Below, one piece after another: positions 3,243 to 49,763 of a stretch of DNA of 64,000 bases (the first letter of the stretch is position 1; each line of letters opens with the position of its first letter). Under the pieces are notes generated by a model that did no database searches, was not told the DNA's origin, and worked only from the letters and a program-made list of their open reading frames with translations. The position numbers and the translations under genes are program-made. Origin of the DNA: Kiritimatiellia bacterium (lineage in GTDB: Bacteria; Verrucomicrobiota; Kiritimatiellia; CAIVKH01); assembly GCA_035327585.1 (NCBI GenBank), contig DAOLDD010000014.1:3494-67493 (forward strand). The letters run 5' to 3'.

Positions 3243-4603
3243 CGCTCCCCCTGCAACGTAAAGTGCACCCGCTCATCCGCGCCCGCGTCGCGTCGCTCAA
3301 GTTCGACGCGCCAGCCGGCGGTTCCCAAGGCCGACGCGAAGCGCTCGCCATCGTTCCAATCATTCGCCGTGCCGTGGAGGCGAAGCGCCGCACCCTGCGC
3401 GGTCAACGCGTGGAAATGCAGCCCCAGCGTCCGCGCATCGCCCAACACCCGGGCGAGCACGGCGTCAGCGCCCGGTTCGCGATAGCGTGCGAACGAGGCC
3501 CAGCCCGCGGCCTCCCCGTCCAGCGCGCGTTGCGCGGCGAGCAGCTCCTGCCCGCGCGGCAGGCGATCCGTGCCCGCGGCCAGCCGCGCTTCCGCGACGA
3601 GCCGCTCCTGCCACAGCTCCTTCGCGTGCTCCAGGAGGGCCAGTCCGCTGAAGGACACCACCGCCAGCGCGGCGGCCGCGGCGGCCAGCGCCACCCCGAG
3701 CCCGCGGCGGCGGCCCTGCGCCAGGCGAACACCCAGCGGATGCGCCAGCGCGCCCTGCCGCAAATCGCCCTCCGCCTCGGCTCGCGTCAACAGACCGACG
3801 GCCAACGCGCGGGGCAGAAATTCAGCGGGCTCCTTGTGTACGATCGACTTTGGCACGCCACCCGGAAATATCTGCGCCGCGATAGCATCGCGAACGGCGG
3901 CACGCTCCGCCACGGGCCCGCACCAAACCACGTGACAAACCGCGCCCGGCGCCTGCTCCTGTTGCGCGCGCCACCAGAGGGCGAGACGCTGCCCCGCGGG
4001 CGAGCCGGGCGCCGCCAGTTCCTCCGCGCCCAGCCGCAGCCCCGTCGCCGAATCCAAGCCCTTGAACGATCCCGCCACCGCGCTGACCCGGGACCGCCCG
4101 AGATGCACCAGCAGGCGGCGATGCTCACGGCCCAACGGCAACTCCGCCACGCTGTATCGCCACAACGCGACCGCCTCATGCTCCAGCGCCACCGGGTCGC
4201 ATCCCGCCTCCCGCAGGCGATCGAGTTGCGCGACGACATCCTCGGTACGCGCGGCGACGGCCAGCGCCGCCACGCCGCCATCCGCCGTTCGCGCCGGTGA
4301 CAGGAAGTCGTACTGGCAACTCTCCAGCGGGAACGGCAATTCAATGTCCAGCAACGACGGCAGGACCCGGCGCGCCTTTTCGACCGACGCGATCGGCGCG
4401 GTAAGTCGCCGCACGAAACCCGAAAATACCGGCATCGCGGCGGCCACCGGTGCGGCATCGCCCGGCGGGCCGGAAAGTCGGCGAAACTGGATGGCGCCGC
4501 GACGGCGGCTCGCCTCGACGAACGTCCATGCGCCGCCATCGAGATCCACGCCGCAAGCAATGGAACCGTAGCGCCCCATCACGCCGGCTCCGGTTCGATC
4601 CAC
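3239..4603 (-). CDS. GspL/PilM-PilN-like assembly platform protein (cytoplasmic actin-like domain, one mid-protein TM, periplasmic domain)
   Basis: N-terminal segment GSIACGVDLDGGAWTFVE resembles PilM/GspL actin-like folds. There is a single TM near residue 300 (GLGVALAAAAAALAVVSFSGLALL), and the gene is flanked by GspK-like and GspM-like genes. Confidence 0.5.
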   Translation of the reverse strand: MDRTGAGVMGRYGSIACGVDLDGGAWTFVEASRRRGAIQFRRLSGPPGDAAPVAAAMPVFSGFVRRLTAPIASVEKARRVLPSLLDIELPFPLESCQYDFLSPARTADGGVAALAVAARTEDVVAQLDRLREAGCDPVALEHEAVALWRYSVAELPLGREHRRLLVHLGRSRVSAVAGSFKGLDSATGLRLGAEELAAPGSPAGQRLALWWRAQQEQAPGAVCHVVWCGPVAERAAVRDAIAAQIFPGGVPKSIVHKEPAEFLPRALAVGLLTRAEAEGDLRQGALAHPLGVRLAQGRRRGLGVALAAAAAALAVVSFSGLALLEHAKELWQERLVAEARLAAGTDRLPRGQELLAAQRALDGEAAGWASFARYREPGADAVLARVLGDARTLGLHFHALTAQGAALRLHGTANDWNDGERFASALGTAGWRVELERRDAGADERVHFTLQGER

Positions 4604-5913
4604 TGCACCACGCGCACCCGCCCATCATCCTGCCGGAACACCAGCGCCTCAATCGTCATGCGCCGACCCTCCCGCTCCGCCCAGGCCTCCACGCGGAAAA
4701 ACTGACTGCGCACTTCGAGATACGGGCGCACCCGCTCATACGCCTCCACGCCCATCGTGAGCGACAATACGTCGAGTTGCCGGATCGGCCGGATGGCGCG
4801 CAGCGTCAGCACCGTGTCCACCATCCGATCCTGTTCCATGCCCAGGACGGCCAGCAGCGTCGCGCGCGGCGCTGAATTAATGTTGATCGGCAGCGGCCTC
4901 GTCCGCGCCACGGGAATCAGCGTGACCAGGTCCACGAATGTCGCGTCGAACGCACCGCCGCCCGCGAGCGCCCGGTCGCGACGCAGCAAATCCGCCTCGC
5001 CCCAGCCGTCGACGTGCGTCAACTCGCGCCAGCCATACAGGACGCGGTCGGGGCTGCGTTGCGGCGGGTTGAGTCGCCGGTAGAACTCCGCCTCGCGCGA
5101 GCCCGCGCGATCCGCGTCAATAAAGTCGCGCAGCGCCGCGGTGCGGCTCGCCGGGGAGAATTCGCCGCACAGCGTCTGCAGGTCCATCACGATATCCTCG
5201 CAAACGCGCGCGCCGGGCGTGGGCTCGGCGCCGAGGTTGTTCAGGTCGAAGCGCGCCTGCTCATCCCGCACGCGAACCGCGGTCGAAATACCCAGCGGCG
5301 TTTCGGCCCACTGGCGCGCCGCCCATACATCGTTCGTCGTGTCCACGCCGAGGTCCGGGTCGTAGGCGAGTTGCTGGAGCGCGGTGTGCACCGCGTCCAC
5401 GGCGGCCTGGCGGAGTTGATGCCGCTCCGTGGCGGCGCGCTCGTGCGCGGCCCGGGTACGCGCGAGCGCGTGGGACTGGAGCAACAGCGCCGCGACCAAC
5501 CCCGTGAGCACCAGCAGCAGCACGAGCACCCCGCCCTCGCGCGCGTCGGACGGTTTCGGAAGAACAGGTCGTGCCCGGCCCGGCGCCCGGCGCGCATCCT
5601 GTGCGCGGCGGAGACGGCGGCTGGGCGAACGGCGATCCCCCAGCCACTCCGGAAAAATCAGGAATACCCAGCGCGCGAGCAGCACCACCCCACCCCCCGC
5701 CCCAAAGTAGAGCGCCATCTCCAGCAGGCGCCGCCGCTGCGGAATCTGCGCGAACGCCGCAAACAACAGGAAGCCGCACGCGATGACCAGCGCGAGAATG
5801 CCCACGACCATGCCCAACAGGCGGAGGCGATGCCGCATGCCGCGAAACCAGGACCGGGATATGGGACGACGTGAAGCCATGAACCCCCGCACTATGGGAA
5901 ACCCGCCCCTCAC
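4579..5913 (-). CDS. GspK-like minor pseudopilin (type II secretion system protein K family); exact start uncertain
   Basis: Pseudopilin-like hydrophobic helix (GGVLVLLLVLTGLVAALLLQSHAL) followed by a GspK-like periplasmic domain with the characteristic ININSA...LLAVLGM motif. There is an N-terminal extension of about 120 aa with two further hydrophobic stretches, so the true start may be internal. Confidence 0.55.
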   Translation of the reverse strand: MRGGFPIVRGFMASRRPISRSWFRGMRHRLRLLGMVVGILALVIACGFLLFAAFAQIPQRRRLLEMALYFGAGGGVVLLARWVFLIFPEWLGDRRSPSRRLRRAQDARRAPGRARPVLPKPSDAREGGVLVLLLVLTGLVAALLLQSHALARTRAAHERAATERHQLRQAAVDAVHTALQQLAYDPDLGVDTTNDVWAARQWAETPLGISTAVRVRDEQARFDLNNLGAEPTPGARVCEDIVMDLQTLCGEFSPASRTAALRDFIDADRAGSREAEFYRRLNPPQRSPDRVLYGWRELTHVDGWGEADLLRRDRALAGGGAFDATFVDLVTLIPVARTRPLPININSAPRATLLAVLGMEQDRMVDTVLTLRAIRPIRQLDVLSLTMGVEAYERVRPYLEVRSQFFRVEAWAEREGRRMTIEALVFRQDDGRVRVVQWIEPEPA

Positions 5914-5985
5914 GCGCCACTACTTTTCAAGCCACCGTCCACCCCGCCGCCCGACTATAATCCCGCGGCGGTTCAGTTTCCGGGG

Positions 5986-6915
5986 CTAGGCGCCGAGGGC
6001 GCGGCGGGTGTCTTCGAGGTCGCGCGCGATTTGCGCCTTCAGGGCATCAAGGGAGTCGAAGGTCCACTCGTCGCGCAGCTTCCGGACGAATTGCACATCG
6101 ATATCCTGGTCGTACAGATCCAGCGACGCGTCGAGCAGGTGCACCTCGACCACGTCGGCCGGCCCCTTGCGCAGGTCGGGGTGCGCGGTCAGGAAAGCGG
6201 CGGCGGCATACACGCGGTCCTCCACGAGCGCACGGCAGGCGTAGATGCCGGGCGGAGGACGGACTTCATTGTGTGGGTCGACGTTCGCGGTGGGATAACC
6301 GAGCGTGCGCCCCAATTTCGTGCCGTGCACCACGGTGCCGTAGATGCTGAACGGGCGACCCAGCATCGCGGAGGCGGATTCCAAATCCCCCGCGGCGACG
6401 GCCTGGCGGATGCGGGTGCTGGATACCAGCCGGCCGCCCCACTCGACCCCGGGCATAACCTCGACGCGAAACCGGCGTTCCGCGCCCAGCGTGCGCAGCA
6501 ACTCCACCGTCCCGCGCGCGCGCCGGCCGAAGGTCCAGTTCGCGCCGACGACAAAGGCGTGGAGCGACGGCACCGCCGCCCGCACATGTTCAATGAACGC
6601 CTCGGGCTCCTGCGCGGAAAATTCCTCGCTAAACGGAAGCAGCGCGACGCCATCCACGCCCTGCGCGCGCAACAACTGCAGGCGGTGCGGGGTCGAAGTC
6701 AGCAGCGCGGGCGCTCGATCGGGTCGCAGGACTTTCAGCGGATGCGGGTCAAACGTCAGCACCCAGGCCTGTCCGCCCACGGCGATGGCGAGCTCGCGCG
6801 CGCGGGCCAATACCGCCTGGTGCCCGCAATGTACGCCGTCAAACGCACCGGCGGCGAACACCACCGGCCGGGCTTCACCGGCCAGCTCCTCCAAACGTGT
6901 AAGGGTCCGCATCAT
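5986..6915 (-). CDS. ribF: bifunctional riboflavin kinase / FMN adenylyltransferase
   Basis: N-terminal nucleotidyltransferase motif GAFDGVHCGHQ, C-terminal riboflavin kinase motifs (GYPTANV, PPGIYA), 309 aa. Confidence 0.9.
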   Translation of the reverse strand: MMRTLTRLEELAGEARPVVFAAGAFDGVHCGHQAVLARARELAIAVGGQAWVLTFDPHPLKVLRPDRAPALLTSTPHRLQLLRAQGVDGVALLPFSEEFSAQEPEAFIEHVRAAVPSLHAFVVGANWTFGRRARGTVELLRTLGAERRFRVEVMPGVEWGGRLVSSTRIRQAVAAGDLESASAMLGRPFSIYGTVVHGTKLGRTLGYPTANVDPHNEVRPPPGIYACRALVEDRVYAAAAFLTAHPDLRKGPADVVEVHLLDASLDLYDQDIDVQFVRKLRDEWTFDSLDALKAQIARDLEDTRRALGA

Positions 6916-7664
6916 GGAAGGGCGCGAAGGTTCAACGATGCGATGGACCGCACCCGCGCGGCCAGCGCCGCCCGGTCGAACGCGACCAGGTCTTCAAACC
7001 GCACCGCGTCCGCGACATCCAGCGCGCCCGCACGGGTGCGACGGAGCGTGTTCATGCACGCGCCGCAACCAAGCCCCTCGCCCACGTCGTGGCAGAGTGT
7101 GCGCACATAGGTGCCCTTCGTGCAGCGCACACGGAACCGCGCGAGCGGCGGCGCAAAATCGAGCAGCGCGAATTCATAAATGTGCAACAGGCGCGGCTCG
7201 CGCGCGATTTCCTGCCCGTTGCGCGCCATCTTGTAGAGCGCGACGCCGTCCTTCTTGATGGCCGACACCATGGGCGGAATCTGATCCACATCGCCGGTCC
7301 ACTTCCGGAATTCCGCGGCGAGCGGCTCGCGCGTGACCGCGGAGGGGTCGCGGCGCGACAGGATTTCGCCCTCGGCGTCGTGCGTATCCGTGGTGACACC
7401 GAGCACGAGCGAGCCCTCGTACACCTTGTCCGTGCTCATGATCGCCTGCGAGAGCTTGGTGGCGCGGCCCAGCAGCAGGACGAGCAGCCCGGTGGCGCCG
7501 GGGTCGAGCGTCCCGCCATGCCCCACCTTGGGGAGGTTGAAGATGCGGCGCACGGCGTCCACGAGGTCGTGCGAGGTCGGCCCGGCGGGCTTGTCCACGA
7601 GCAGTACGCCGTCGAGCTCATCCCCGGCGCGCGGGGCGCCTCCCCTGTAGCGGCCGTGCCTCAT
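6912..7664 (-). CDS. truB: tRNA pseudouridine(55) synthase
   Basis: Motif GVLLVDKPAGPTSHDVV...GHGGTLDPGATGLL (catalytic Asp in GTLDP). Overlaps ribF by 4 nt. Start taken at the internal Met (an alternative upstream start is at 7709). Confidence 0.9.
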   Translation of the reverse strand: MRHGRYRGGAPRAGDELDGVLLVDKPAGPTSHDLVDAVRRIFNLPKVGHGGTLDPGATGLLVLLLGRATKLSQAIMSTDKVYEGSLVLGVTTDTHDAEGEILSRRDPSAVTREPLAAEFRKWTGDVDQIPPMVSAIKKDGVALYKMARNGQEIAREPRLLHIYEFALLDFAPPLARFRVRCTKGTYVRTLCHDVGEGLGCGACMNTLRRTRAGALDVADAVRFEDLVAFDRAALAARVRSIASLNLRALP

Positions 7665-8065
7665 GATCCGGCGGCGGGGGCGGACGCGTCGGTCGAGTCG
7701 TCCTCCCACTCGGGATGCTCCGCCTCCATCTCGGCGATCATCGACAACACCTGGTCGCCCTGCGCGATGGAGTGGTCGAGTTCGAAAATGAGCTGCGGCG
7801 TGTACTTCATCTTGATGTCGCGGTTGATGAGGTTCTGCAGCTCGATGCGGTGACCGCGGATGAGCGCCAGCATCTCCTCCTGCGTCTCCGGCTCGCCGCG
7901 GATGGACACCAGCACGCGCGCGTGGCGCAGGTCCGCGCTGGTGAGGACGCGGGTGACGGTGACCGCGGCGGCGTCGAAACCGGGCTCATTGACGAGGCGG
8001 AACAGATATTCCGCCACTTCCTGGCGAAGCAACTGGTTGATGCGCGTCAAACGCTGCGGACGCAT
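7661..8065 (-). CDS. rbfA: ribosome-binding factor A
   Basis: Begins MRPQRLTRINQLLRQEVAEYL, similar to the RbfA N-terminus, about 135 aa, and in the conserved position between infB and truB. An alternative start is at 8080. Confidence 0.85.
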   Translation of the reverse strand: MRPQRLTRINQLLRQEVAEYLFRLVNEPGFDAAAVTVTRVLTSADLRHARVLVSIRGEPETQEEMLALIRGHRIELQNLINRDIKMKYTPQLIFELDHSIAQGDQVLSMIAEMEAEHPEWEDDSTDASAPAAGS

Positions 8066-8098
8066 GGCGACTCCTCCCAAACCCCGCGCGCGGAGCGG

Positions 8099-10117
8099 TT
8101 ACAGTTGTTGGGCGATCTTTTCGACCTCGTACACCTCGACGACGTCGCCCGGTTCAAAGTCGCCGAAATGATCCAGCCGCAGGCCGCACTCCTGGCCCTC
8201 GCGCACCTCGGCCGCCTCGTTCTGGAAGCGGCGCAGGGTGGAGACGCTGCCCTCGTACAATACATCGCCCCGGCGCTTGACGCGCGCGCGCCCGCGCGCG
8301 GTGATGCGGCCGTCGGTGACAATGCAGCCGGCGACCTTGCCCTTTTTGCCGAGATCGAAAAGCTGTTTGACCTGCGCATGGCCGAGGATCGTCTCGCGGA
8401 CGATCGGCTCCAGCAGGCCCTGCATCAGCTCCTTCAACTCGTCCAGCATCTCGTAAATGATGCTGTAGAGCCGCACCTCGACGCCCTCGCGCTTCGCGGC
8501 GGAGGAGACTTCCGTGTCCTTGCTGACATGGAAGCCGAGGATGATCGCCTTGGACGCGCTGGCCAGCAATACATCGTTCACATTGATGTTGCCGATGCCG
8601 GCGAGGACGATTTGGTGGTCCACCTTGTCGCTTTTGATGTTGCCGATGGCGTATTGGAGCGCCTCCAGCGAACCCTGCGTGTCCACCTTGAGCAACATCG
8701 AAAGCGTCTTCCTGCCCGCCTCGGCGCCTGCCTGGAACAGGTCCTCCAGCGAAGCGCGCTTCGGCGACTGGCCGGCGAGCGATTCCTCGCGTTTGACGAA
8801 CTGACGCGCATCCGACTCGGCGCGCGCGGCTTTCTCGTCCGCCATTACGGTAAATTCCGCGCCGGCTTCCGGGACGCCGGACAGGCCGAGACATTTCACG
8901 GCATCCGACGGCCCCACGCTCTTCACGCGTTCGCCACGGTCGTTGATGAGCGCCTTGATGCGGCCCCAGTGCAGGCCGCACAGCACCGCGTCGCCAACCT
9001 TGAGGGTGCCCTCGCGCAGCAGCAGCGTCGCCGTGGGGCCCATGCCGGGCTCCATGCGCGCCTCGACCACGAAGCCCTGCGCGGGCTTGCGCGGGTTCGC
9101 CTTGAGCTCGAGGATTTCCGCCTGTGCGATGATGTTTTCGAGAAACTCGGGTATGCCGTCGCCGTTCAGCGCGCTGACCGGGCAGCAAATCACGTCGCCG
9201 CCCCAATCCTCCGGGTTGATGCCCAGGGCCTGGAGCTGCTGCTTGACGCGGTCGCCGTTGAATGCGCGCAGGTCCTTCTTGTTCAGCGCGACCATGATGG
9301 CGACCTTCGCGGCCTGCGCGTGCTGGATGGCCTCCTTGGTCTGCGGCATGATGCCGTCCACGCCGTCAATCACGATGACCGCGATGTCGGTGAGGTTCGC
9401 GCCGCGCGCGCGCATCGCCGTGAAGGCCTCGTGGCCGGGCGTGTCCAGGAAGGTGATCTTGTGCTTGTCCTTGCCGCCGACCGTGACGGTGTAGGCGCCG
9501 ATGTGCTGCGTGATGCCGCCATCCTCGCCGGCCGCGACGCGGCTGTTGCGGATCTTGTCGAGCAGCGACGTTTTGCCATGGTCGACATGGCCCATGAAGA
9601 CGACGACCGGCGGGCGGGTGACGATGTTCTCGGGAACGTCGATTTTCTCGACGACCGGCTTCACCTTCGGCTTCGGCGGCGGCGGCGGGGGCTTGACCTC
9701 CACCTTCTTTTCCAGTTCGACCGTCCACTCCCACTTCGCGGCGATCTGCTGCGCGATCTTCATCTCGATCTTCTGGTTGATCGAGGCGAAGATGTTCATC
9801 TTCATCAATTCGGCGATGAGCAGGTTGGGCTTCACGCCCATGTGCTCGGCGAATTCGCGCACGATGATCGGAAAGCCCGGTTTGACCGTGATCACCTTGC
9901 GATCGGGCGCGGACGACACGGGCGCATCCGAATGCGCCGCCTCGGCGGGCGAGGGTTCCGCGGCCGCGGGCGCATAGGCGCCGCGAAGCGCCGCGACCTG
10001 TTCGGCGGTCAGTACGCTCATATGGTTGCGCACTTCGCCCGCGTTCAAGGCCTGCAATTTTTCAATCAGGTCCTTGGTCGGCCGCTCCAGCTCTTTGGCT
10101 AGCTCAAAAACTCTCAT
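8099..10117 (-). CDS. infB: translation initiation factor IF-2
   Basis: G-domain motifs GHVDHGKTSLLD, DTPGH and NKKD, followed by the C-terminal beta-barrel domains; 672 aa. Confidence 0.95.
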   Translation of the reverse strand: MRVFELAKELERPTKDLIEKLQALNAGEVRNHMSVLTAEQVAALRGAYAPAAAEPSPAEAAHSDAPVSSAPDRKVITVKPGFPIIVREFAEHMGVKPNLLIAELMKMNIFASINQKIEMKIAQQIAAKWEWTVELEKKVEVKPPPPPPKPKVKPVVEKIDVPENIVTRPPVVVFMGHVDHGKTSLLDKIRNSRVAAGEDGGITQHIGAYTVTVGGKDKHKITFLDTPGHEAFTAMRARGANLTDIAVIVIDGVDGIMPQTKEAIQHAQAAKVAIMVALNKKDLRAFNGDRVKQQLQALGINPEDWGGDVICCPVSALNGDGIPEFLENIIAQAEILELKANPRKPAQGFVVEARMEPGMGPTATLLLREGTLKVGDAVLCGLHWGRIKALINDRGERVKSVGPSDAVKCLGLSGVPEAGAEFTVMADEKAARAESDARQFVKREESLAGQSPKRASLEDLFQAGAEAGRKTLSMLLKVDTQGSLEALQYAIGNIKSDKVDHQIVLAGIGNINVNDVLLASASKAIILGFHVSKDTEVSSAAKREGVEVRLYSIIYEMLDELKELMQGLLEPIVRETILGHAQVKQLFDLGKKGKVAGCIVTDGRITARGRARVKRRGDVLYEGSVSTLRRFQNEAAEVREGQECGLRLDHFGDFEPGDVVEVYEVEKIAQQL

Positions 10118-11415
10118 GACGCTCCCGGCTCCGGGCTCGACGGCGCGCCAGTCGGCGGGGCGGATTCAGCGGAGCCTCCGCGCGCCTCCGCGGCGGCGCG
10201 CACCGCGGCGGCGTCCTCCGGCGTGAAGCCCTCAATGGCCTGCAAATCCTCCACATCGGCGGCGAGAATGCCGTCGAGCGTGAGAAAGCCCGAGTGGACG
10301 AGCTGTGCCGCCCGCGTGGCGCCAATGCCGTCGATCGCGGCCAGCGCCGCAACGGCGTTGGCGACCTTCTCCTCGAAGCCGATCGCCGACTCATCCTTTT
10401 GGATGTCGATCTTCCAGCCGGTCAGCTTGGACGTGAGCCGCGCATTCTGGCCCTTCTTGCCGATGGCGAGCGAAAGCTGGTCCGGCGCAACAATGACATT
10501 CACGGTGTGCGACGCTTCGTCCACCGCGACCTTGGTCAGCTTCGCGGGCGCCAGCGCGTTCGTCACGAACACCTTGACGTCCTCGTTCCAGCGCACGATA
10601 TCGATTTTCTCGCCCGACAATTCGCGGACGATGTTCTTCACGCGGATGCCGCGCATGCCGACGCACGCGCCGACCGGATCGACCTTTTCGTCGCGCGAGA
10701 CGACGGCGATTTTGCTGCGGAAACCCGGCTCGCGCGCGATGCCGCGCATCTCAACCGTCTTGTCGTTGATCTCCGAAACCTCGAGCTCAAACAGCCGCTT
10801 TACAAAGTCGGGATGGCTGCGCGTCAGGACGATGCGGGTGCCGGAGGCATCGCTCGTCACATCGAGGACCAGCGCGCGAATCTTATCGCCCACCTGGTAT
10901 TCCTCAATGGGCACGCGCTCCTTGGCCGGCAGCACCGCCTCGGCGAAGCCGTCGAGCCCGAGAATCACGTCGCTGCGCTCGAACCGGCGCACCGTCCCAC
11001 TGACGATGTCGCCAACACGGTTCTTGTATTCATCAAACACCTTGTCGCGCTCCGCCTGGCGGATTCGGTTGAGAATCGCCTGCTTCGCCGTCTGCGCGGC
11101 GATGCGTCCGAAATTTTTCGGCGTCACTTCGACTTCAAGAAAATCGCCGAGCTTCGCGTCCGCCTTGATGCGCTGGGCGGCCTGAAGCCCGATTTCGTCG
11201 TGCGAGGCGCGCACGCGTTCTACCACCTGGACGCGTGCCAACGCCTTGATATCGCAGGTTTTGCGATCAATTTCGATGCGCAGATCCTTGGCAGGGCTGA
11301 CGCTCTTCTTGGAAGCCGTCATCAATGCGCCCTCAACGGCCTTGATCAGCGTCTCGCGCTCAATGCCGCGCTCGCGCTCCATATAGTCTAAAACTGCAAG
11401 CAACTCATTATTCAT
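10114..11415 (-). CDS. nusA: transcription termination/antitermination factor NusA
   Basis: N-terminal NusA domain, S1 and KH domains (GxxG motifs), and a C-terminal acidic repeat region; overlaps infB by 4 nt. Confidence 0.95.
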   Translation of the reverse strand: MNNELLAVLDYMERERGIERETLIKAVEGALMTASKKSVSPAKDLRIEIDRKTCDIKALARVQVVERVRASHDEIGLQAAQRIKADAKLGDFLEVEVTPKNFGRIAAQTAKQAILNRIRQAERDKVFDEYKNRVGDIVSGTVRRFERSDVILGLDGFAEAVLPAKERVPIEEYQVGDKIRALVLDVTSDASGTRIVLTRSHPDFVKRLFELEVSEINDKTVEMRGIAREPGFRSKIAVVSRDEKVDPVGACVGMRGIRVKNIVRELSGEKIDIVRWNEDVKVFVTNALAPAKLTKVAVDEASHTVNVIVAPDQLSLAIGKKGQNARLTSKLTGWKIDIQKDESAIGFEEKVANAVAALAAIDGIGATRAAQLVHSGFLTLDGILAADVEDLQAIEGFTPEDAAAVRAAAEARGGSAESAPPTGAPSSPEPGAS

Positions 11416-11467
11416 GACTTACACTCCAACCGGACCGCCGGTTGCCCCCATGCGACGCCGTGTCTAC

Positions 11468-11499
11468 AGACACAAAAGAGTGGGTTGTGACCCACTCTT
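11468..11499 (-). terminator. intrinsic-terminator-like hairpin with U-tract in the nusA 5' leader (candidate attenuator)
   Basis: On the minus strand, a 10-bp perfect stem (AGAGTGGGTC/ACAACCCACTCT flanking a 4-nt loop) is followed by UUUUGUGUCUGU. It lies about 55-85 nt upstream of the nusA ATG. Confidence 0.5.
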
Positions 11500-11856
11500 C
11501 GCCAGCGGCCGCACAGATAACCGGTATAGACTGCCCGCAGCAGCCATACCGGTCAAGTGGTAAAAGCGGCCATTGGCGTTTTGGATGTGATCCGACAAAT
11601 CCTCGTCTCACGCGGCGCAGGATTTAAGCTCACCGATTTCTCGCCTAATGCCCGGGTTAAACTATTGACCTCCGACCCGGGTTTTCGGATGCTTGATCGT
11701 TGGTGGGGAAGTCGTCTTCACCTGTCGGCACGCACTCGTGGGGTGTGCAGTGATGTCGAGAGAGGTAAACTTTAAGTTCGGGACAGCGTAGCTTAAGAAC
11801 TGTGGGCGGGGGCTCCCTTGGGGGGCGCGTCGGGCCGCTTGCGTCACAACGGGAAC

Positions 11857-12486
11857 ATGAGGGCATTGCTACACAAATCGCGGCACGCGGTGGCCGTTGC
11901 GCTTTGCGCGCTCGGCTTGGCCGCAGCGCCGGCCGACGCCGCCATCGTCGACCTTGATGCCTATGTCCTGAATCCGATTCTTCAGGACGACGGCATCACG
12001 CCGCTCGCGGACGGTTCCTGGGTCATGATTATCGGCAGTTGGGATGGAACGATCGACCCGATGGTGCAAATAGGACCCGACTACATCGCCGCCTCGGTCA
12101 CCGGCGACGACGTCATCCTCGGCATTGTACAAATCGACAGCCTCTTCGGCCCCGGCACCTTCGGCACCACGGTCCAGTACGACTCCACCCTGGTTAACAA
12201 TGTCTACATCCGCTTCTTCGATACAACCGGGCCGCTGACGGGTATGATCTGGTGGGGTACATCCCCGATGATTGGGCCGGTTGGCGTAACGCTCGGCGTG
12301 ACCACCGTTCAGTTCGATCCCGGGGGAAGCCTGCAGGTAGATCAGGAAAACAACTTCGTCATCATCCCGGAACCGGGCACGGCCAATTTGTTGCTGCTGG
12401 TGGGCGGCATGATCTGGGCCATGCGCGCAAAGATGGCGCGAAAGAAAAACAAGGATCAGGAAGAAACCGGGCGCGAAAGCAGCTAG
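11857..12486 (+). CDS. PEP-CTERM sorting-domain secreted protein
   Basis: Signal peptide [28 protein letters not shown]. The C-terminus is [31 protein letters not shown], which is a PEP motif plus a TM helix plus a basic cluster (exosortase substrate signature). The longer ORF-track start at 11818 is rejected. Confidence 0.8.
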
Positions 12487-12497
12487 CGGACGATATC

Positions 12498-13388
12498 ATG
12501 AAGCGCATTCTTCGAACGGGCCTGTTGGGGGCAGCCTGTTGGATCGCCGGCCACGCATACGGCCTGCAGGTTCCGCTCCACTTCAGCATCACCAATACCG
12601 TGCTCAATGAGTTCGGGCAGGTCCTTCCAGGCTCCTCCGTGCAAGCGCCGGCCTTTAACCAGCCGTACGTCGAGGGCGCCTTGGTCCAGGTTCTGAACGT
12701 CAGCGGCGGCACGCTCCCGCCGGACACAAACGGCGTGCCGCACCCCAGCAACGCGATATTGCTCCAGACCCGCATCGGCGAGGGTATCGATCCCAAACAA
12801 GCCACATCCGGCCGCAGCAGCGGGTCCATCACAGCGCTTAACCGCTCGTCCAGCAGCACCGGCATCTTCATCAAGGTTCGTGTATTCAACAAACCGACCC
12901 TTGAGGAGTCCTCTTTCTATGGCGAGTCCCAGGCGTTTAATGTGCCGACATACGACACCGCGCCCTACGATGTGTTCCTGGCCAGCGTATCCGCCACCAC
13001 CAACGAACTCGACACCACGGACCACGACGGGGACGGCCTGAGCCGCTCGTGGGAGAAAAGTTACGGCACGGACCCCGCCAAGGCGGATACCGACGACGAT
13101 GGCATGATCGATGGCCACGAAATCCGCGCGGGCACCGACGCCACCGATCCCGACTCGCTGCTCATCGTCGTCCACCTCACGCCGGGCAACGGCAACGACC
13201 TGCAACTGTCTTGGGATACCGTGCCTGGCAAGGCGTACCAGCTCCAAATGATGGAAGCCATGACCAACGGGGCCTTCTTCGCCGACATCGAGGCGCCGGT
13301 GACGGCAACCGGCATGGTCACCAGCATCGTCGTCCCCGACGGCCTGCTCAACCCGCAATCGCTCTACCGCGTCCGCCTCGACGACTGA
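12498..13388 (+). CDS. secreted protein with thrombospondin-type-3-like Ca-binding repeats
   Basis: Signal peptide [22 protein letters not shown]. Carries DxDxDG repeats ([25 protein letters not shown]). Start set at ATG 12498; the ORF-track start overlaps the previous gene. Confidence 0.65.
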
Positions 13389-36235: not shown

Positions 36236-36321
36236 GCCCGGGTGGCGAAATGGCAGACGCAAGGGACTTAAAATCCCTTGATCGAAAGATCGTGTGGGTT
36301 CGAGTCCCACCCCGGGCACCA
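36236..36321 (+). tRNA. tRNA-Leu (anticodon UAA), CCA encoded
   Basis: GCCCGGG-UG-GCGA-AAUGGCAGA-CGC-A-AGGGA-CUUAAAA-UCCCU-long variable arm UGAUCGAAAGAUCGU-GUGGG-UUCGAGU-CCCAC-CCCGGGC-A-CCA. The cloverleaf folds by hand, and the T-loop is GGTTCGAGTCC. Confidence 0.9.
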
Positions 36322-41650: not shown

Positions 41651-44254
41651 ATGAATAAATCGCCCGAAGACGGAATCCTGCCCGCGCACCGGAATCTGCA
41701 AAATATCCGCGTGCTGGTGCTGGACGATGAGGAGCCGGTCCGGCATTTGCTCCAGACCCTGCTCACCCGCAACGGCTGCATCGTGGAAACGGCGGACGAC
41801 GGGCGCGAAGGGCTGCGCATCCTGCTGCAAAAGGATTTCGATGTCGCGGTGGTGGACCTCCGCATGCGCGACATGGGCGGCTCGGCGTTTCTCGAGCAGG
41901 CGCGCAGCGTCTGGCCCTGGCTCGGTATCGTCGTGGTCACCGGCTACGCGGACGAGGAATCGGTCGCGCATGCGCGGCGCTTCGGCGTGACGCGCATCCT
42001 CACCAAGCCGATGAACACCCAGACGCTGCTCCGCAACGTGCTGGAGGAGGCGATCGAGAAGAAGGAGCTGGTCGAGATGTCGGCCAGCCACAGCCTGGAC
42101 CGCATCCAGGCGCAGCTCTCGCTGCTCCGCAGTTTCAGCGAATCGGCGCTGACCGCGGAAAACCTCGACGACGCGCTGCGCACGCTGAGCACCGGGCTCG
42201 GCAACCTGCTGCCCTGCGCGGCGGCGGGCATCCTGAATCTCGAGGGCGAGGAACCGGTCCTGCACCTGCACGCGCTGACGCCGGTGGCGCAGGAATTCCT
42301 GCTCAACGCGGAGAAGGAGATGATGCGGCGCTACGAGGCGCTCAGCGGACAACCCGCGCCGCGGGCCGGGCTGCGCGTCATCTTCGACCCGGCGAATCTC
42401 GACCCCAAGGGCGCCCAACAGGTCGGCAGCAGCTTCAGCGTGCCGATCATCGCGCACGGCGAGGTGCGCGGCATGTTGACGCTGGCCGCGGTCGCGGATG
42501 ACGCCTATTCCTCGCGCGACGCGTCCTTTCTCTACCACGCGGCGAACCAGCTCTCGACGGTATTGAGCGCGCTGGCGCGCATGCGGGAGCTGTCGGTGCG
42601 CGACGCGCTGACCTCGCTCTACAACCGGCGCGGGCTGGAGGAGGAGTTCCAGCGGGCGTGGCTGATGAGCCGCCGCTACAACTGGCCGATCGGCGCGGCG
42701 GTCCTCGACATCGACAACTTCAAGATTCTCAACGACACGCACGGCCACCTGGTCGGCGACCAGATCCTGCGCGAGTTCTCGAAACTCGTCCAGCAGGTGG
42801 CGCGCGAGTCGGACATCATCGGCCGTTACGGCGGCGATGAAATGGTCGTCATCCTCGCGCAGGCGGGCACCGCGGATTGCATCGCGTTTGGCGAGCGGCT
42901 GCTGCACGCGATGCGCCAGCAGGTGTTCTGCGTGGACCGGGGCCTCGCGCTGCAATTGACCACGTCGATCGGCGTATCCAGCAGCGTCAACGGCCCGGCG
43001 GACATGACCAGCGAGACGCTGATCGCGCAGGCGGACCAGGCCCTCTACATGGCGAAGAAGCAGGGGCGCGACCGCGTCTGCGTTTACCAGGCGGTGGCGC
43101 CGGGCGAGAAGGGCGTTCCATCCGCCCCCATCGCGCCGGAATCCGACCCGGCCCGCATGCGCGGGCGCGTGCTGGTCGTGGATGACGAACCGATGGTCGG
43201 TTCGCTGCTTTCGCGCGTGCTCCGCAAAAACGCCTACGAGGTGCAGGTCGAAACCACGGCCGCCGGCGCGCTGAACGCGATCCAGGAAAAGCCCGGCCAT
43301 TTCGACGTGATCCTCACCGATCTGAACCTGCCCGAGAAAAGCGGACTCGACCTGCTGGACGAGCTGCGCTCCATCGACGAGGGGATGATCAAAATCGTAA
43401 TCACGGGCCACGCGACGGTCGACAACGCGGTCGTGAGCCTGCGGCGCGGCGCGTACGATTTCATTGAGAAGCCCGTGCTGCCGGACGCCCTGATGGCGAT
43501 CGTCGACCGCGCCCTCGAATACCGCCGCCTGAAGCGCGAAAACGTCCGCTACCAGAACCACCTCGAGGAAATGGTCCGCGAAAAAAGCGCCGCGCTGCGG
43601 GAGGCGCTCCAGCAGGTGAAGGCCTCCTACGACTTCACGCTCGAGGCGATGGCGGCGCTGCTCGACGCACGCGAGCGCAACACGGCGCACCACAGCACGC
43701 GCGTACGCGACCTCTCCGTCATCATGGCGCGCGAACTCGGCCTCTCGGTGAACGAGATCGACGACATCTCGCGCGGCGCGCTGCTGCACGACATCGGCAA
43801 GATGTGCATTCCCGACAGCATCCTGCTCAAGCCCGGCCCGCTGACCGCGGACGAGCGCGAGGAGATGAAAAAACACCCCGAGGTCGGCTACAAACTGCTC
43901 TCGTCGAGCCCGCATTTGGAGCGCGTCGCGGAAATCGTGCGTTCGCACCACGAGCGGTACGACGGCGCCGGCTACCCGCGGCGGATCAAGGGGGCGGACA
44001 TCTGCCTGGGCGCGCGCATCTTCGCGATCATCGACTCGTACGACGCGATGCGGTCGGACCGTGTATATCGCAAGGCGATTTCCAGCGAGGAGGCGATGCT
44101 GGAAATCGAGCGCAACGCCGGGACGCAATTCGATCCGGCGTTGGTCGACCTGTTCAAGCGCATCCACCTGGCCATTGAGGCCGCCGGCAATTGGAGTGCG
44201 GCGGACGCGCGGTCGGCGTACGAAACGCCCGAAACCCGGAAGTATGGTTCATAA
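41651..44254 (+). CDS. multidomain c-di-GMP signalling protein: REC - GAF-like - GGDEF (GGDEM variant, RxxD I-site present) - REC - HD-GYP
   Basis: REC1 (VLVLDDEEPV...VVDLRMRDMGG...VVVTGY...LTKP); GGDEF domain (RYGGDEM with RESD five residues upstream); REC2 (VLVVDDEPMV...ILTDLNLPEKSG...IVITGH...EKP); HD-GYP (HHSTRV...LLHDIGK...HHERYDGAGYP). Start at ATG 41651 (MNKSPEDG). Confidence 0.9.
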   Translation: MNKSPEDGILPAHRNLQNIRVLVLDDEEPVRHLLQTLLTRNGCIVETADDGREGLRILLQKDFDVAVVDLRMRDMGGSAFLEQARSVWPWLGIVVVTGYADEESVAHARRFGVTRILTKPMNTQTLLRNVLEEAIEKKELVEMSASHSLDRIQAQLSLLRSFSESALTAENLDDALRTLSTGLGNLLPCAAAGILNLEGEEPVLHLHALTPVAQEFLLNAEKEMMRRYEALSGQPAPRAGLRVIFDPANLDPKGAQQVGSSFSVPIIAHGEVRGMLTLAAVADDAYSSRDASFLYHAANQLSTVLSALARMRELSVRDALTSLYNRRGLEEEFQRAWLMSRRYNWPIGAAVLDIDNFKILNDTHGHLVGDQILREFSKLVQQVARESDIIGRYGGDEMVVILAQAGTADCIAFGERLLHAMRQQVFCVDRGLALQLTTSIGVSSSVNGPADMTSETLIAQADQALYMAKKQGRDRVCVYQAVAPGEKGVPSAPIAPESDPARMRGRVLVVDDEPMVGSLLSRVLRKNAYEVQVETTAAGALNAIQEKPGHFDVILTDLNLPEKSGLDLLDELRSIDEGMIKIVITGHATVDNAVVSLRRGAYDFIEKPVLPDALMAIVDRALEYRRLKRENVRYQNHLEEMVREKSAALREALQQVKASYDFTLEAMAALLDARERNTAHHSTRVRDLSVIMARELGLSVNEIDDISRGALLHDIGKMCIPDSILLKPGPLTADEREEMKKHPEVGYKLLSSSPHLERVAEIVRSHHERYDGAGYPRRIKGADICLGARIFAIIDSYDAMRSDRVYRKAISSEEAMLEIERNAGTQFDPALVDLFKRIHLAIEAAGNWSAADARSAYETPETRKYGS

Positions 44255-44402
44255 GCAGCTTCGCCATTGTTGAGGGATCGCGCGAGGGGGAGGACCTGAC
44301 GGATCGGCATTCCCGGCGCGGCTTAAGTTGTTCATGTTTCCCGAACATCCAAAATATCCGGTGCCGAAGGGGGATCGCCGCAAGCGAAACCTGTCGCGCC
44401 CG

Positions 44403-45977
44403 ATGGCTTCGGACCGGCGTCAGGCCACCCGGTATGTCGGCAACTTCCCGGTGACGATCCATGTTGGACAGGGCGGGGACGCCCGCGTCTACAACGCTGT
44501 CGCCCGCGACATTTCTGATGGCGGCCTCCTGCTGGAATGCGCGGATGTACCGCCCGGGGAGACGCGAATCCGCGTGCAATTCAAAGTGCCCGAGGGCGTC
44601 ATGCCGGAGGAATTTTCGCACGGCGCCCAATCCACGGAAGGCGAGGTGCGGCGACGCGACGGCGATCGAAAGCTGCTGGGCGTGCAGTTCGCGCAACCGA
44701 TGAGCCGGCGGCTCGCGCGGACGACCTGGAACTATCTCCGGGGCATCGCGACCCTGGCCCTGATGGTCACCCTCGCCCTGATCGTCCTGATCAAGGTCGA
44801 GAATTTTTATTATTTCTGGTTCGACGTGCCCGTGTTCCTGTACAGCCTCGCGGTCGGCGCGTTCCTGCTCTCGCGCTTCCTGTTCGCGGCGTTCTACCGC
44901 GCGCCCCGGCCGCGGGATGACGCGAGCCTGCCGACCGTCAGCGTCATTTTTCCGGTGTTTAATGAGGAGGGATTCATCGAACGCACGCTGGTGCAGGCGC
45001 TCGAAGTGGCCTACCCCCTCGACAAATTGCAGGTCATCGCGGTGAACGACGGCAGCCGGGACCAGACCTTCCAAATCATGCAACGCGTCCAGCAACGGTA
45101 TCCCGAGCTGGTCCTCGTGAACCTGGAGAAGTCGATGGGCAAACGCGGCGCCATCGCCGCCGGCGCGCAACTGGCGACGGGCGAAATCCTGGTGCTCTCC
45201 GACTCCGACAGCTTTTTCCAGCCGGACGCCATCCGCCGGATCGTCGACGGGTTCACCGAACCGAAGGTCGCGGCGATCACCGGGCACTGCGACGTCGAGA
45301 ACGCGTGGACGAACCTGCTGACCAAGATGCAGACCGTCCGCTACTACATCAGCTTCCGCGTGATGAAGGCGGCCGAAAGCGTGTTCGACGCCGTGACCTG
45401 CCTTTCCGGACCCTTCGCCGCGTACCGGCGCGAGGTGTTCATGTCCGTGGCCGACCGGTGGCTCAACCAGCGCTGGTGCGGCGCGCCCGCGACGTTCGGC
45501 GACGACCGTGCGCTGACCAATTTTGTCCTGCGCCAGGGCCACGCGGTGATTTACGACTCGCGGGCGCGGTGCACCACCATCGTGCCGGAGGACTACCGCA
45601 CGTTCCTGCGCCAGCAGATGCGCTGGAAGCGTTCGTGGTTCCGGGAGTGCATGCGCGGCTGCGCCTACATCTGGAAATATCCGCCACTGGTCTCGCTCTC
45701 CTACTACTTGGGGTTCATCCTCCCGCTCGTCGCCCCCATCGTCGTATTCCGCGCCCTGCTCTACATGCCGCTCTTCCAGCGCGGCAGCCCGCTGATGTAC
45801 ATGCTCGGCATCCTGCTGATGAGCAGCTTGATGAGTTCGGTGTATCTCTTCACGCGCCGCTCGCGCCTGTGGATCTACGGCATCCCATTCTGCTTCTTCT
45901 ACATGTTCGTGCTGGTCTGGCAACTACCGTGGGCGATGCTCACCTCCGCCCACGCAAAATGGGGCACGCGGGGCTGA
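44403..45977 (+). CDS. processive family-2 glycosyltransferase (cellulose/PNAG/hyaluronan-synthase-like) with an N-terminal PilZ c-di-GMP-binding domain
   Basis: PilZ motifs RRQATR (RxxxR) and DISDGG (DxSxGG); GT2 core with DGSRD and LSDSDS acidic motifs and the Q(Q/R)xRW motif QQMRWKRSW; about 7 TM helices. An alternative upstream start is at 44328. Confidence 0.85.
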   Translation: MASDRRQATRYVGNFPVTIHVGQGGDARVYNAVARDISDGGLLLECADVPPGETRIRVQFKVPEGVMPEEFSHGAQSTEGEVRRRDGDRKLLGVQFAQPMSRRLARTTWNYLRGIATLALMVTLALIVLIKVENFYYFWFDVPVFLYSLAVGAFLLSRFLFAAFYRAPRPRDDASLPTVSVIFPVFNEEGFIERTLVQALEVAYPLDKLQVIAVNDGSRDQTFQIMQRVQQRYPELVLVNLEKSMGKRGAIAAGAQLATGEILVLSDSDSFFQPDAIRRIVDGFTEPKVAAITGHCDVENAWTNLLTKMQTVRYYISFRVMKAAESVFDAVTCLSGPFAAYRREVFMSVADRWLNQRWCGAPATFGDDRALTNFVLRQGHAVIYDSRARCTTIVPEDYRTFLRQQMRWKRSWFRECMRGCAYIWKYPPLVSLSYYLGFILPLVAPIVVFRALLYMPLFQRGSPLMYMLGILLMSSLMSSVYLFTRRSRLWIYGIPFCFFYMFVLVWQLPWAMLTSAHAKWGTRG

Positions 45978-47909: not shown

Positions 47910-49499
47910 ATGCACAACCGGTTTCCAGTCGCACTCCTCGTCGGCCAGGCTCTCCTGACGGTAGGCCTTCACGCGGAAACACCGCGTTCCGCCCTTTCGC
48001 TCATCCATGAATCGCGCGTGGCCGTGGGCCGCGGCGACTTGGGTGACGCCCGCACGGCGGCCCGCCAGGCGGTGGAGATTGATCCCGCCTATGCGGACGC
48101 GTGGAAACAATTGGGGCGCGTGCAGATGCTCGCGCGCCAGCCGGACGATGCGCTCCGCGCGCTCGACACCGCCCGCCAACTCAAACCGGGCGATGCGGAA
48201 ATCGAAGGCTGGTTGGGCCCGCTTTATCGGGATCTCGGCTGGTGGCATTGGGCAAAGGGCGACATCGCGTCGTCGATCGCCGCGTTCAACGATGCGCTGA
48301 AGGCGAACGTCCCGCGGCGACACGACGTCCTGCGGAGCTTCCAGGCTGTACTCGCCGAAAGCGATCACCGCGCCGAGGCGCTCCAGCTCCTCGAAAGTTG
48401 GGGCGATCCCGACATCTGGCGGGAAATCGCGCGCGCGAACCTCGACCAAGGCCGCCTGCTCGCCGCCGAACCGGCGCTTACGCTGCTTCACCTCGCGAAA
48501 GACGACCCAGTGCGAACGGACGTTCAACTCGCCCACACGCGCGCGATGCTGGGCGCTTGTGAGGACATGTCCGCGCTGATCCCGGATCCCGCGGAGCGCG
48601 CCGCCGCGTGGGACGACCCGCATGTTGACCTGGCCATCGAGGCCATTCTGCTCTGCAACAACGGAACCCTTACCTCACGACTCGCGCGGCTCCAGGCGTT
48701 GGAGCGCGAACCCCAACGGGACGTTTCCGAACGCATGCGGACAGCGGCCCGAACAGCGCTTGCACATCGGAACTTTGACCGCGCGTTCCGGATCTACGAC
48801 CGCCTGCTCGCGCGTGAACCGGACTGCCGCTGCTACCTGCGCGCCGCCTCCGCGGCCGAGGCCCTGCGCGGCACAAAGGGCGCCGCGCAATTTCTGGCCG
48901 CGCTGCTTCCCCGCTCCAGCGACGACGCCGTGCGCGCCGGAATCCAAGGCCGACTCGCGCGACTGGATGGACTGGCCGATGAAGCCGCGGCCCACTACGC
49001 GCGCAGTCTTTCCCTCGATCCCGCCCAGAACGACGTGCAACGCGAGTTATTCTTCGCCCTGGTCGAACTCGGACGCGAGGAGGAGGCCAGGCGCGTGGCC
49101 GACGCGCTCGCCGGTCGCGAGGCCGAGGGCGAAACAGAACTCCGGCCGATCCTCGCGGAAATGTGGAGCGCCCTCGCGGACCACGAACTCGCCCTCGCCT
49201 TCTGGGGCGCCCTCGCGGAGCGTCACCCCGGCAGCGCCTACTACACCGTCGAATGGGCTCGCACACTGCTGCGCGTCGGGCGGAGGGCCGATGCGATCGC
49301 CCGGCTGGAAGCGCTCACCGCGCGCGTCGCCGACGTCCCGGCGCTTGAATTGCTGGCACGCCTGCTCATCGAGGATCACCGGAAGGCCGAGGCGCTTCAA
49401 ATCGTCGAACAGGCGCTGGCCCTCGAATACACGACCTCGCTGCTGCAACTTCGGACACTTGCGGGCGGGATATCGGACGACGGGGACGCCTCACGATAG
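47910..49499 (+). CDS. secreted TPR-repeat protein (PgaA/PelB/BcsC N-terminal-like scaffold; no beta-barrel domain recognisable)
   Basis: Signal peptide [22 protein letters not shown], then more than 10 TPR-like helical repeats ([13 protein letters not shown]..., [14 protein letters not shown]..., [26 protein letters not shown]...). Confidence 0.7.
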
Positions 49500-49763
49500 C
49501 GGCGTTTTCTGCTTCGTGATCAGCGGCAGCACCGGGGCCTTTTCCGCGTTTATCGCGATATATGATTTCCACTTCGCCGGCACGCGCTGCGCGGGGAAAA
49601 TCGCCTTCGTCGGACACTCCGGCACGCACGCGCCGCAATCGATGCACTCCACCGGGTCAATCACCAGCATCCGGTCATCCTCGTGAAAACAATTCACCGG
49701 GCACACCGTGACGCAGACGGTGTTTTTGCATCCGATGCAGGGCTCTGTGACGACGTGCGGCAT
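49491..49763 (-). CDS. fdx: ferredoxin (4Fe-4S / 7Fe type)
   Basis: [14 protein letters not shown] and [12 protein letters not shown] cluster-binding motifs; 90 aa. Confidence 0.85.

Follow-up and report, generated by a model that had tools for sequence, protein, structure and literature searches.

A widespread family of hyaluronan-synthase-lineage glycosyltransferases with a PilZ domain at the N-terminus

Introduction

Can a polysaccharide synthase be placed under the control of cyclic diguanylate (c-di-GMP), a second messenger, by a PilZ domain attached to its N-terminus, and if so, which polymer would such an enzyme make? This question is raised by a gene for a 547-amino-acid protein, here called the PilZ-synthase, encoded in a 64-kb stretch of DNA from a Kiritimatiellia bacterium (GenBank contig DAOLDD010000014.1; the whole stretch is hereafter the window), in which a PilZ domain precedes the first transmembrane (TM) helix of a processive family 2 glycosyltransferase (GT2). 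The mechanism by which PilZ controls polysaccharide synthases is understood for a single architecture, that of BcsA with its C-terminal PilZ domain. In reviews dated 2021, 2023 and 2025 and a primary paper dated 2023, PilZ is reported only at the C-terminus of synthases or as part of a separate subunit. The N-terminal arrangement is not described in two PilZ surveys, and our full-text literature search returned no publication on a synthase family of this kind, an earlier mention in passing being possible. We report here that the PilZ-synthase belongs to a real, widespread and apparently unstudied family with inverted sensor topology, within the paradigm of PilZ-controlled synthase-dependent exopolysaccharide production. 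The family amounts to an independent natural experiment, with PilZ at the opposite end of a core of the hyaluronan synthase (HAS)/NodC/chitin-synthase type that has a free C-terminal gating tail.

Results

The PilZ match of the synthase (Pfam PF07238; 40.0 bits against a gathering cutoff of 22.5, E=5e-10, profile positions 1-100 of 102) precedes its GT2 models, and an AlphaFold2 model built on 110 homologues (predicted local distance difference test, pLDDT, 90.4; predicted template modelling score, pTM, 0.89) puts the domains in the same order. In this model residues 34-119 fold into a six-stranded barrel (strands 34-44, 51-60, 64-68, 78-84, 98-109 and 114-119), followed by a helix from residue 123, with a local pLDDT of 83-92. 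An earlier reading of the window from its letters alone (the sequence-only reading) had placed PilZ at the N-terminal side of a processive GT2 synthase, with canonical PilZ motifs before the first TM helix of a QxxRW-type enzyme, and had named the lack of a predicted beta-barrel as a ground for refutation; Pfam, the motif positions and the model bear it out on each count. Numbered from the start codon at 44334, the motifs read R28-R29-Q-A-T-R33 (RRxxxR) and D59-I-S61-D-G-G64 (DxSxxG). Conservation was assessed over 316 non-identical family members, a set that spans two clades with about 40% identity between them. R28, R29, R33, D59 (D or N), S61 and G64 are conserved in 313-316 of these 316 sequences, and because they are near-invariant the motifs are not chance matches. 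Together these residues make up a predicted c-di-GMP site that is conserved and intact. A profile of the PilZ portion alone gives a marginal match in the PDB (MotI, 5vx6, E=0.12), in which the motifs align with those of the MotI/YpfA PilZ domain.

The synthase starts at ATG 44334. Upstream, the nucleotide sequence cannot be aligned with that of the two nearest genomes (L001 and L002 in our numbering of related loci), and conservation sets in at exactly this ATG; 20 homologues, 57-91% identical, can be aligned from the beginning of the 547-residue protein; and NCBI holds the identical 547-residue protein as HMP76205.1 [Kiritimatiellia bacterium], encoded on a 269-kb contig of a metagenome-assembled genome and annotated only as 'glycosyltransferase'. 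It is on these three grounds that we assign the start. The sequence-only reading had left the choice between ATG 44403 and an upstream ATG at 44328 to a conservation comparison, with the chance that translation begins downstream of the PilZ motifs. This comparison places the start upstream of them; position 44328 turned out to be a TTG, backed by neither the homologues nor the NCBI call, the upstream ATG being that at 44334. A start at ATG 44403 is ruled out by the onset of conservation at 44334 and by the lack of conservation of its methionine, Met24, the equivalent of which is missing in both L001 and L002.

The same reading had held that the choice of start alters only a short tail. The 23-residue tail, as it proves, holds a near-invariant R15-R16, part of a second arginine motif (D-R-R-x-R...R) that sits 13 residues upstream of the canonical RRxxxR and would be lost with translation from 44403. 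Of the 316 family members, 307 keep R15 and 310 keep R16, which matches the conservation of the canonical arginines R28, R29 and R33 (313-315/316); R15, R16 and R22, all before Met24, are invariant among the 20 homologues, and both clades, the Gram-negative-type one and that of Firmicutes, keep the motif. The model has a pLDDT of 76-82 at residues 11-30. No known PilZ feature accounts for this second motif. Members from Firmicutes carry an insertion of about 20 residues between the second DRR and the arginine preceding the first strand. In one Gemmatimonadales metagenome-assembled genome (MAG; locus L038, 6486-8075) the arginines of both N-terminal motifs are lost and DISDGG is kept; by its sequence this synthase may be a natural c-di-GMP-blind variant.

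Beyond the barrel, the model comprises a helix at 123-159, a helix at 165-186, a GT-A domain at 202-415 and interface and TM helices at 421-536. The short periplasmic loop between TM1 and TM2 (ENFYYFWFDVP) is conserved, with F161, F163, D164, P166 and Y170 invariant in the homologue alignment. The catalytic domain is matched by the Pfam families Glycos_transf_2 (E=2e-27), Glyco_tranf_2_3 (E=7e-27) and Chitin_synth_2 (E=1e-21), and its motifs are DGSRD (239-243), DSD (290-292, within DSDS 290-293), CLSGP (356-360), GDDR (389-392) and QQMRW (427-431). Thus the enzyme has the features that define the processive GT2 class: the aspartate, DxD, a catalytic-base motif and QxxRW, all borne by a GT-A domain with TM and interface helices on either side. 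A phmmer search of PDB sequences ranks Xenopus HAS1 (XlHAS1, 8smm) and Chlorella-virus HAS (CvHAS, 7sp7) at the top, both at about E=3e-32; the full HAS motif set (GDDR, SG(P), QxxRW and WGTR) is present and lines up with that of both enzymes, and the alignment to CvHAS extends to the final residues, WGTRG on WGTRG. Foldseek searches with the model return HAS at E=5e-24 (8smp) to 7e-18 and 21-24% identity, the archaeal mannosyltransferase PcManGT at about 3e-18, BcsA at about 1e-16 to 4e-14 and chitin synthases at about 1e-12 and weaker, the top matches to HAS, BcsA and Chs1 all having probability 1.00.

W543, T545 and R546 of the C-terminal WGTRG are conserved in 312-314 of the 316 sequences; Firmicutes synthases carry a lysine-rich extension after WGTR. 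The equivalent WGT(S/R)G is the gating loop of HAS, which enters the catalytic pocket, contacts uridine diphosphate (UDP) and is essential for activity (PMC11750622), and in bacterial SeHAS, an enzyme with a four-helix pore, the motif WGTR stands at the C-terminus (2026 preprint). By sequence and by model, the catalytic core is of the hyaluronan-synthase/NodC/chitin-synthase lineage and is not BcsA-like, and its gating geometry is therefore not simply transferable from BcsA. The synthase as a whole is a PilZ domain of about 125 residues ahead of a core of about 420 residues, the size of bacterial HAS or NodC, with four TM helices. Three specific identities were considered and rejected: BcsA (45 bits against 699 for TIGR03030 and 31 against 992 for PRK11498, with PilZ N-terminal and the downstream gene not of BcsB fold), NodC (TIGR04242, 167.3 bits against a cutoff of 550) and PgaC/IcaA (TIGR03937, 134.2 bits against a cutoff of 422.3). 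The 30% identity to E. coli PgaC is confined to the GT domain.

The sequence-only reading had called this topology uncommon. Among characterised systems that holds, as the literature shows; in genomes it does not. A database search with the synthase returned at least 2881 clusters (90% identity) at E<=1e-10, and of the best 120 of these matches 118 have a precomputed PilZ domain, all have GT2 and nearly all are 534-562 residues long. A second search, seeded with the Lactobacillus equicursoris member, added at least 4180 further 90%-identity clusters at E<=1e-30, and a scan of one genome per species found relatives in at least 499 species, the best 80 loci from which served for the comparison of neighbourhoods (labels L001 and so on); in 80 of these 80 the match starts at query residue 61 or before. 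The N-terminal 200 residues, searched against 1.84 billion cluster representatives, retrieve 96 clusters at 50% identity, 35 of them at E<=1e-10, and the family is therefore compact but distinct.

Among the matches listed, members fall in at least nine phylum- or order-level groups: they come from Verrucomicrobiota, Kiritimatiellia, Lentisphaerae, Thermodesulfovibrionales, Aminicenantes, Acidobacteriota, Syntrophorhabdus, Gemmatimonadales and Planctomycetota, with Nitrospirota and phyla of the Planctomycetes-Verrucomicrobia-Chlamydiae (PVC) group among those represented, and, at about 41% identity, from the Firmicutes Clostridium, Sporomusa, Pelosinus, Paenibacillus, Cohnella, Brevibacillus and Lactobacillus. 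Cultured members include Sporomusa, Paenibacillus, Brevibacillus, Clostridium and Lactobacillus equicursoris. Pfam recognises PilZ in distant members with 30 bits (L. equicursoris), 24.8 bits (a Planctomycetota MAG) and, just below the cutoff, 20.4 bits (Sporomusa). Automated domain annotation already detects the PilZ match in family members, and the database names are generic or transferred ('glycosyltransferase', 'hyaluronan synthase' at JGI and UniRef, 'PNAG synthase').

The coordinates of the gene, of its parts and of its neighbours are collected in Table 1.

Table 1. Features of the PilZ-synthase locus (positions within the window).
Feature	Position	Strand	Basis or remark
Response regulator REC-GAF-GGDEF-REC-HD-GYP, 887 aa	41591..44254	+	Pfam
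PilZ-synthase gene, 547 aa	44334..45977	+	intact open reading frame; stop codon 45975-45977
N-terminal arginine motif D14-R15-R16-K-R18...R22	44373..44399 (D14-R18 = 44373-44387)	+	upstream of canonical PilZ motif
PilZ domain (aa 27-135)	44412..44738	+	PF07238; RRxxxR 44415-44432, DxSxxG 44508-44525
TM1 (aa 123-159, continuous with PilZ C-terminal helix), periplasmic loop, TM2 (aa 165-186)	44742..44891	+	DSSP on model
GT2 catalytic domain	44931..45632	+	Pfam, motifs, alignment to 8smm/7sp7 E=3e-32
WGTRG (aa 543-547), final five residues of the protein	45960..45974	+	aligns with CvHAS WGTRG, chain positions 455-459
Membrane-anchored periplasmic partner, 640 aa	45981..47903	+	model pLDDT 91
Periplasmic tetratricopeptide repeat (TPR) protein, 529 aa, signal-peptide-like N-terminus	47910..49499	+	Pfam TPR families

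The neighbourhood of the synthase is conserved on its 3' side. In 77 of the 80 loci a homologue of the periplasmic partner lies directly 3' of the synthase; in two of the three exceptions the sequence ends just past the synthase, and the TPR gene is next in 36 of the 41 Gram-negative-type loci; the module of synthase, partner and TPR protein spans at least eight phyla-level groups. The partner consists of a TM helix (2-26), a domain with the fold of carbohydrate esterase family 4 (CE4) resembling the N-terminal domain of PgaB (45-300), a beta-sandwich similar to lectins and carbohydrate-binding modules (312-466) and an alpha/beta domain (480-640). Its first domain superposes on the deacetylases PgaB-N, BpsB and IcaB of poly-N-acetylglucosamine (PNAG) systems (Foldseek target TM-scores 0.72-0.82), with A, E107 and G108 in place of PgaB's H55, D114 and D115, respectively. 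With its canonical catalytic residues replaced and a Pfam score of 16.7 against a cutoff of 23.1, the partner has, as modelled, a CE4 fold but does not qualify as a canonical CE4 enzyme, and could be a pseudo-enzyme or perform new chemistry. The replacement motif FEGGRKD is invariant in 46 partner homologues and reads FEDGR(R/N)D in Firmicutes. In most relatives the TPR homologue is 1300-1534 residues long and all TPR (for instance L039 11614-16218 and L007 11602-15504), and neither the short nor the large TPR homologues contain a detectable outer-membrane porin domain, TPR being all that was found.

The gene on the 5' side encodes a response regulator with Pfam matches to Response_reg (twice), GAF, GGDEF (E=3e-39) and HD_5 (E=4e-42). 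It has a variant GGDEM at 414-418, a RESD I-site at 405-408, HDIGK at 733 and GYP at 794, and is probably a local source and sink of c-di-GMP; as a hybrid it may both make and degrade the messenger beside its presumed target. This gene adjoins the synthase only in close relatives, on the same strand in L001 and L002 and divergently in L006 and L030. Long minus-strand open reading frames lie opposite the synthase (589 residues, 44154-45923) and opposite the GGDEF gene (881 residues); given the G+C content of 65-67% we take these to be artefacts and not genes. No c-di-GMP riboswitch or other RNA was found upstream of the synthase, and a scan for promoters and terminators performed no better than on shuffled sequence.

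Over 9 nt (49491-49499) the 3' end of the TPR gene coincides with that of a convergent open reading frame of 90 residues (49491-49763, minus strand), which we read as a putative ferredoxin by its cysteine motifs; the arrangement recurs in L001. The sole Rfam match in the window is a tRNA gene at 36236-36318. The surrounding genes are housekeeping genes (valyl-tRNA synthetase, an LpxC-family protein, an HMGL/LeuA-family synthase and an amino-acid-kinase/ACT-domain protein), and the polysaccharide module is thus an isolated island.

Clues to the polymer come from clustering the neighbouring open reading frames across the 80 loci. In Firmicutes, a gene of the UDP-glucose/GDP-mannose-dehydrogenase family lies in the same-strand operon in 32 loci, a true multi-domain CE4 deacetylase (Pfam E=6e-74) is found in 37 and a gene resembling glycoside hydrolase family 18 (GH18) in 30. 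Such an operon, as in L044 (Sporomusa malonica, 3835-12695) and L043 (Lactobacillus equicursoris), encodes a UDP-sugar dehydrogenase, a CE4 deacetylase, the PilZ-synthase, the CE4-like partner and a GH18-like protein. Among the Gram-negative-type loci, 14 have a CE4 deacetylase and 6 a GHL10 gene, and a GH18 chitinase is present in two loci from Thermodesulfovibrionales. The closest enzyme relatives of the synthase all use UDP-N-acetylglucosamine (UDP-GlcNAc). A polymer containing N-acetylhexosamine fits the CE4, GH18/GHL10 and UDP-sugar dehydrogenase genes in the loci of relatives, and our best guess, by analogy, is a GlcNAc-containing polysaccharide, possibly partly de-N-acetylated and in Firmicutes possibly with uronic acid. 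The product in the genome of the window is the least certain, since the accessory genes are absent from its 64 kb.

Discussion

The observed domain architecture, fold, motif conservation, start codon, family distribution and synteny lead us to propose, with moderate confidence, that the locus serves the c-di-GMP-gated synthesis and export of a GlcNAc-containing exopolysaccharide by an inner-membrane GT2 of HAS lineage with an N-terminal PilZ domain. In this proposal, in which c-di-GMP binding, activation through the gating loop and the identity of the polymer are what we infer, the adjoining REC-GGDEF/HD-GYP enzyme would make or remove c-di-GMP, which would bind to R28/R29/R33 and D59/S61/G64, probably as an intercalated dimer like that in other RRxxxR PilZ domains. 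Binding would relieve an inhibited state and the free C-terminal WGTR loop would insert over the UDP-sugar, upon which the synthase would polymerise the polysaccharide, threading it through its own channel, to be received by the periplasmic PgaB-fold/beta-sandwich partner and the TPR protein. Processivity and export are suggested by the modelled fold and by the periplasmic partners. Because the C-terminal helix of the PilZ domain is continuous with TM1, the barrel would lie at the cytosolic face of the membrane, level with the entrance of the active site. The whole-chain pTM of 0.89 indicates that the PilZ domain is confidently placed in the model, and the geometry is supported by this value and by the position of TMH1 in XlHAS1, which rests on the cytosolic IFH2-TMH3 connection and so brings the N-terminus near the QxxRW helix.

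Several observations weigh against the proposal or fail to support it. Mean-field direct-coupling analysis of the 316 sequences (effective number of sequences about 150) returned sensible top pairs within domains (PilZ hairpins, GT strands, TM1-TM3) and no enrichment of pairs between PilZ and GT, which made up 77 of the top 300 where about 100 are expected. The partner is without the catalytic residues of PgaB, the TPR gene of this genome is of a short, 529-residue form, and a search of the 64-kb window found no UDP-sugar dehydrogenase, no true CE4 deacetylase, no GH18 or GHL10 hydrolase and no outer-membrane porin. The literature search found no binding or activity study on any family member. 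Finally, RiGT2 is a GT2 synthase with canonical RxxxR and NxSxxG motifs, yet without detectable c-di-GMP binding; its activity is independent of c-di-GMP and is lost upon deletion of PilZ (PMC10374906). By this analogy PilZ motifs alone do not guarantee c-di-GMP binding.

RiGT2, inactive once its PilZ domain is removed, is also the precedent for a different role of the domain here, namely as a structural or scaffolding module for folding or partner binding in an enzyme that is not c-di-GMP-gated. The Gemmatimonadales synthase of L038, which has lost its arginines and kept DISDGG, is in keeping with such a role. The near-invariance of the ligand-contacting residues (313-316/316) across clades about 40% identical is unexpected for a purely structural barrel, however, and a c-di-GMP-metabolising enzyme is encoded next door, so that we regard a structural PilZ domain as unlikely.

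We hold in equally low regard, as speculation, a variant of the gating proposal in which the arginine-rich tail (D14-R15-R16 together with R28-R29...R33) blocks the acidic nucleotide pocket in the absence of c-di-GMP. The tail would hold the pocket that the arginine of the WGTR loop must enter, and c-di-GMP would sequester the tail arginines onto the PilZ barrel. If true, the family would solve c-di-GMP gating in its own way, and its module would form a fifth class of synthase-dependent exopolysaccharide system, next to those for cellulose, alginate, PNAG and Pel; environmental PVC bacteria, together with gut Firmicutes (Lactobacillus, Absicoccus), would make a hyaluronan-like or chitin/chitosan-like polymer.

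Could the enzyme be a genuine c-di-GMP-controlled hyaluronan synthase, joining GlcNAc and glucuronic acid (GlcA)? Its nearest solved structures are HAS, GDDR, SGP, QxxRW and WGTR are all in place, and JGI and UniRef label family members accordingly, but these names stem from automated transfer and the identity to HAS is only 21-24%. In has operons hasB accompanies the synthase; the 32 Firmicutes loci with a dehydrogenase-family gene in the operon would agree with this arrangement, whereas the window is without such a gene, and the CE4 deacetylases and GH18/GHL10 proteins of relatives point to chitin- or PNAG-like chemistry. We therefore think hyaluronan a rather doubtful product.

A NodC-like chito-oligosaccharide synthase, releasing short oligomers into the cytoplasm with no export of a polymer, appears improbable. 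NodC is the best-scoring NCBIfam model (167 bits, residues 198-548 to the model end), and the synthase, like NodC, is without the two extra C-terminal TM helices of viral and vertebrate HAS; the score nevertheless falls far under the cutoff, there are no nod genes nearby, and bacterial HAS also exports through a four-helix pore with a C-terminal WGTR. Moreover, the near-constant periplasmic carbohydrate-type and TPR proteins downstream make sense only for an exported polymer.

That the locus is a decaying remnant, from which this genome no longer makes an exported polymer, would explain the third gene of 529 residues in place of 1300-1534 in most relatives (including L002, synthase 74% identical) and the absence from the window of the accessory deacetylase and hydrolase genes of relatives, but is the least probable account, with three intact open reading frames, every motif preserved and the short TPR form present also in L001 (synthase 75% identical), which marks it as a stable variant and not a recent lesion.

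The conserved partners match none of the cellulose, alginate, PNAG and Pel systems. The identity of the polymer would add an unrecognised component of the biofilm matrix, and would show whether non-streptococcal bacteria make HA-like (hyaluronan-like) polymers under second-messenger control.

Comparison with Known Systems

BcsA (PDB 4P00; Foldseek E=4e-16) is likewise a membrane GT2 with QxxRW and a fused PilZ domain (RxxxR, DxSxxG), and has a gating loop over the active site that responds to c-di-GMP, as is proposed for the PilZ-synthase. Its PilZ domain, however, is C-terminal, after TM8, whereas that of the PilZ-synthase is N-terminal, before TM1, and its gating loop is an FxVTxK segment between IF3 and TM7, as opposed to WGTR at a free C-terminus. 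BcsA further has eight TM helices, a TED motif and the partner BcsB, where the present synthase has four helices, GDDR and no BcsB.

The class I HAS enzymes (SeHAS, CvHAS 7SP6 and XlHAS1 8SMM) are the nearest relatives in sequence and structure and share GDDR, SGP, QxxRW and WGTR(G), SeHAS also sharing the four-TM core with WGTR near the C-terminus. To our knowledge, no HAS has a PilZ domain or is regulated by c-di-GMP. The has operons are without the periplasmic partners of the PilZ-synthase module, and the window is without UDP-glucose dehydrogenase. NodC, the best NCBIfam match, aligns colinearly to the C-terminus, but has no PilZ domain, makes short oligomers and occurs in a different genomic context.

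The PgaCD-PgaB-PgaA system of E. coli resembles the locus in having a GT2 synthase, c-di-GMP-activated there and by our proposal here, followed by PgaB-type and TPR proteins. There c-di-GMP binds at the interface of PgaC and PgaD, whereas here we find PilZ and no PgaD; PgaB has H55, D114, D115 and a GH153 domain, none of which the partner has, and in the TPR protein a porin domain could not be detected. In the alginate system, Alg44 has an N-terminal cytosolic PilZ domain directly before a TM helix and works with the GT2 Alg8. Alg44 is a separate co-polymerase with a periplasmic membrane-fusion domain, whereas here PilZ and TM helix are fused to the synthase. By the defining features of the BcsA, NodC and PgaC families the PilZ-synthase belongs to none of the three, being most BcsA-like in its proposed working and HAS/NodC-like in its build.

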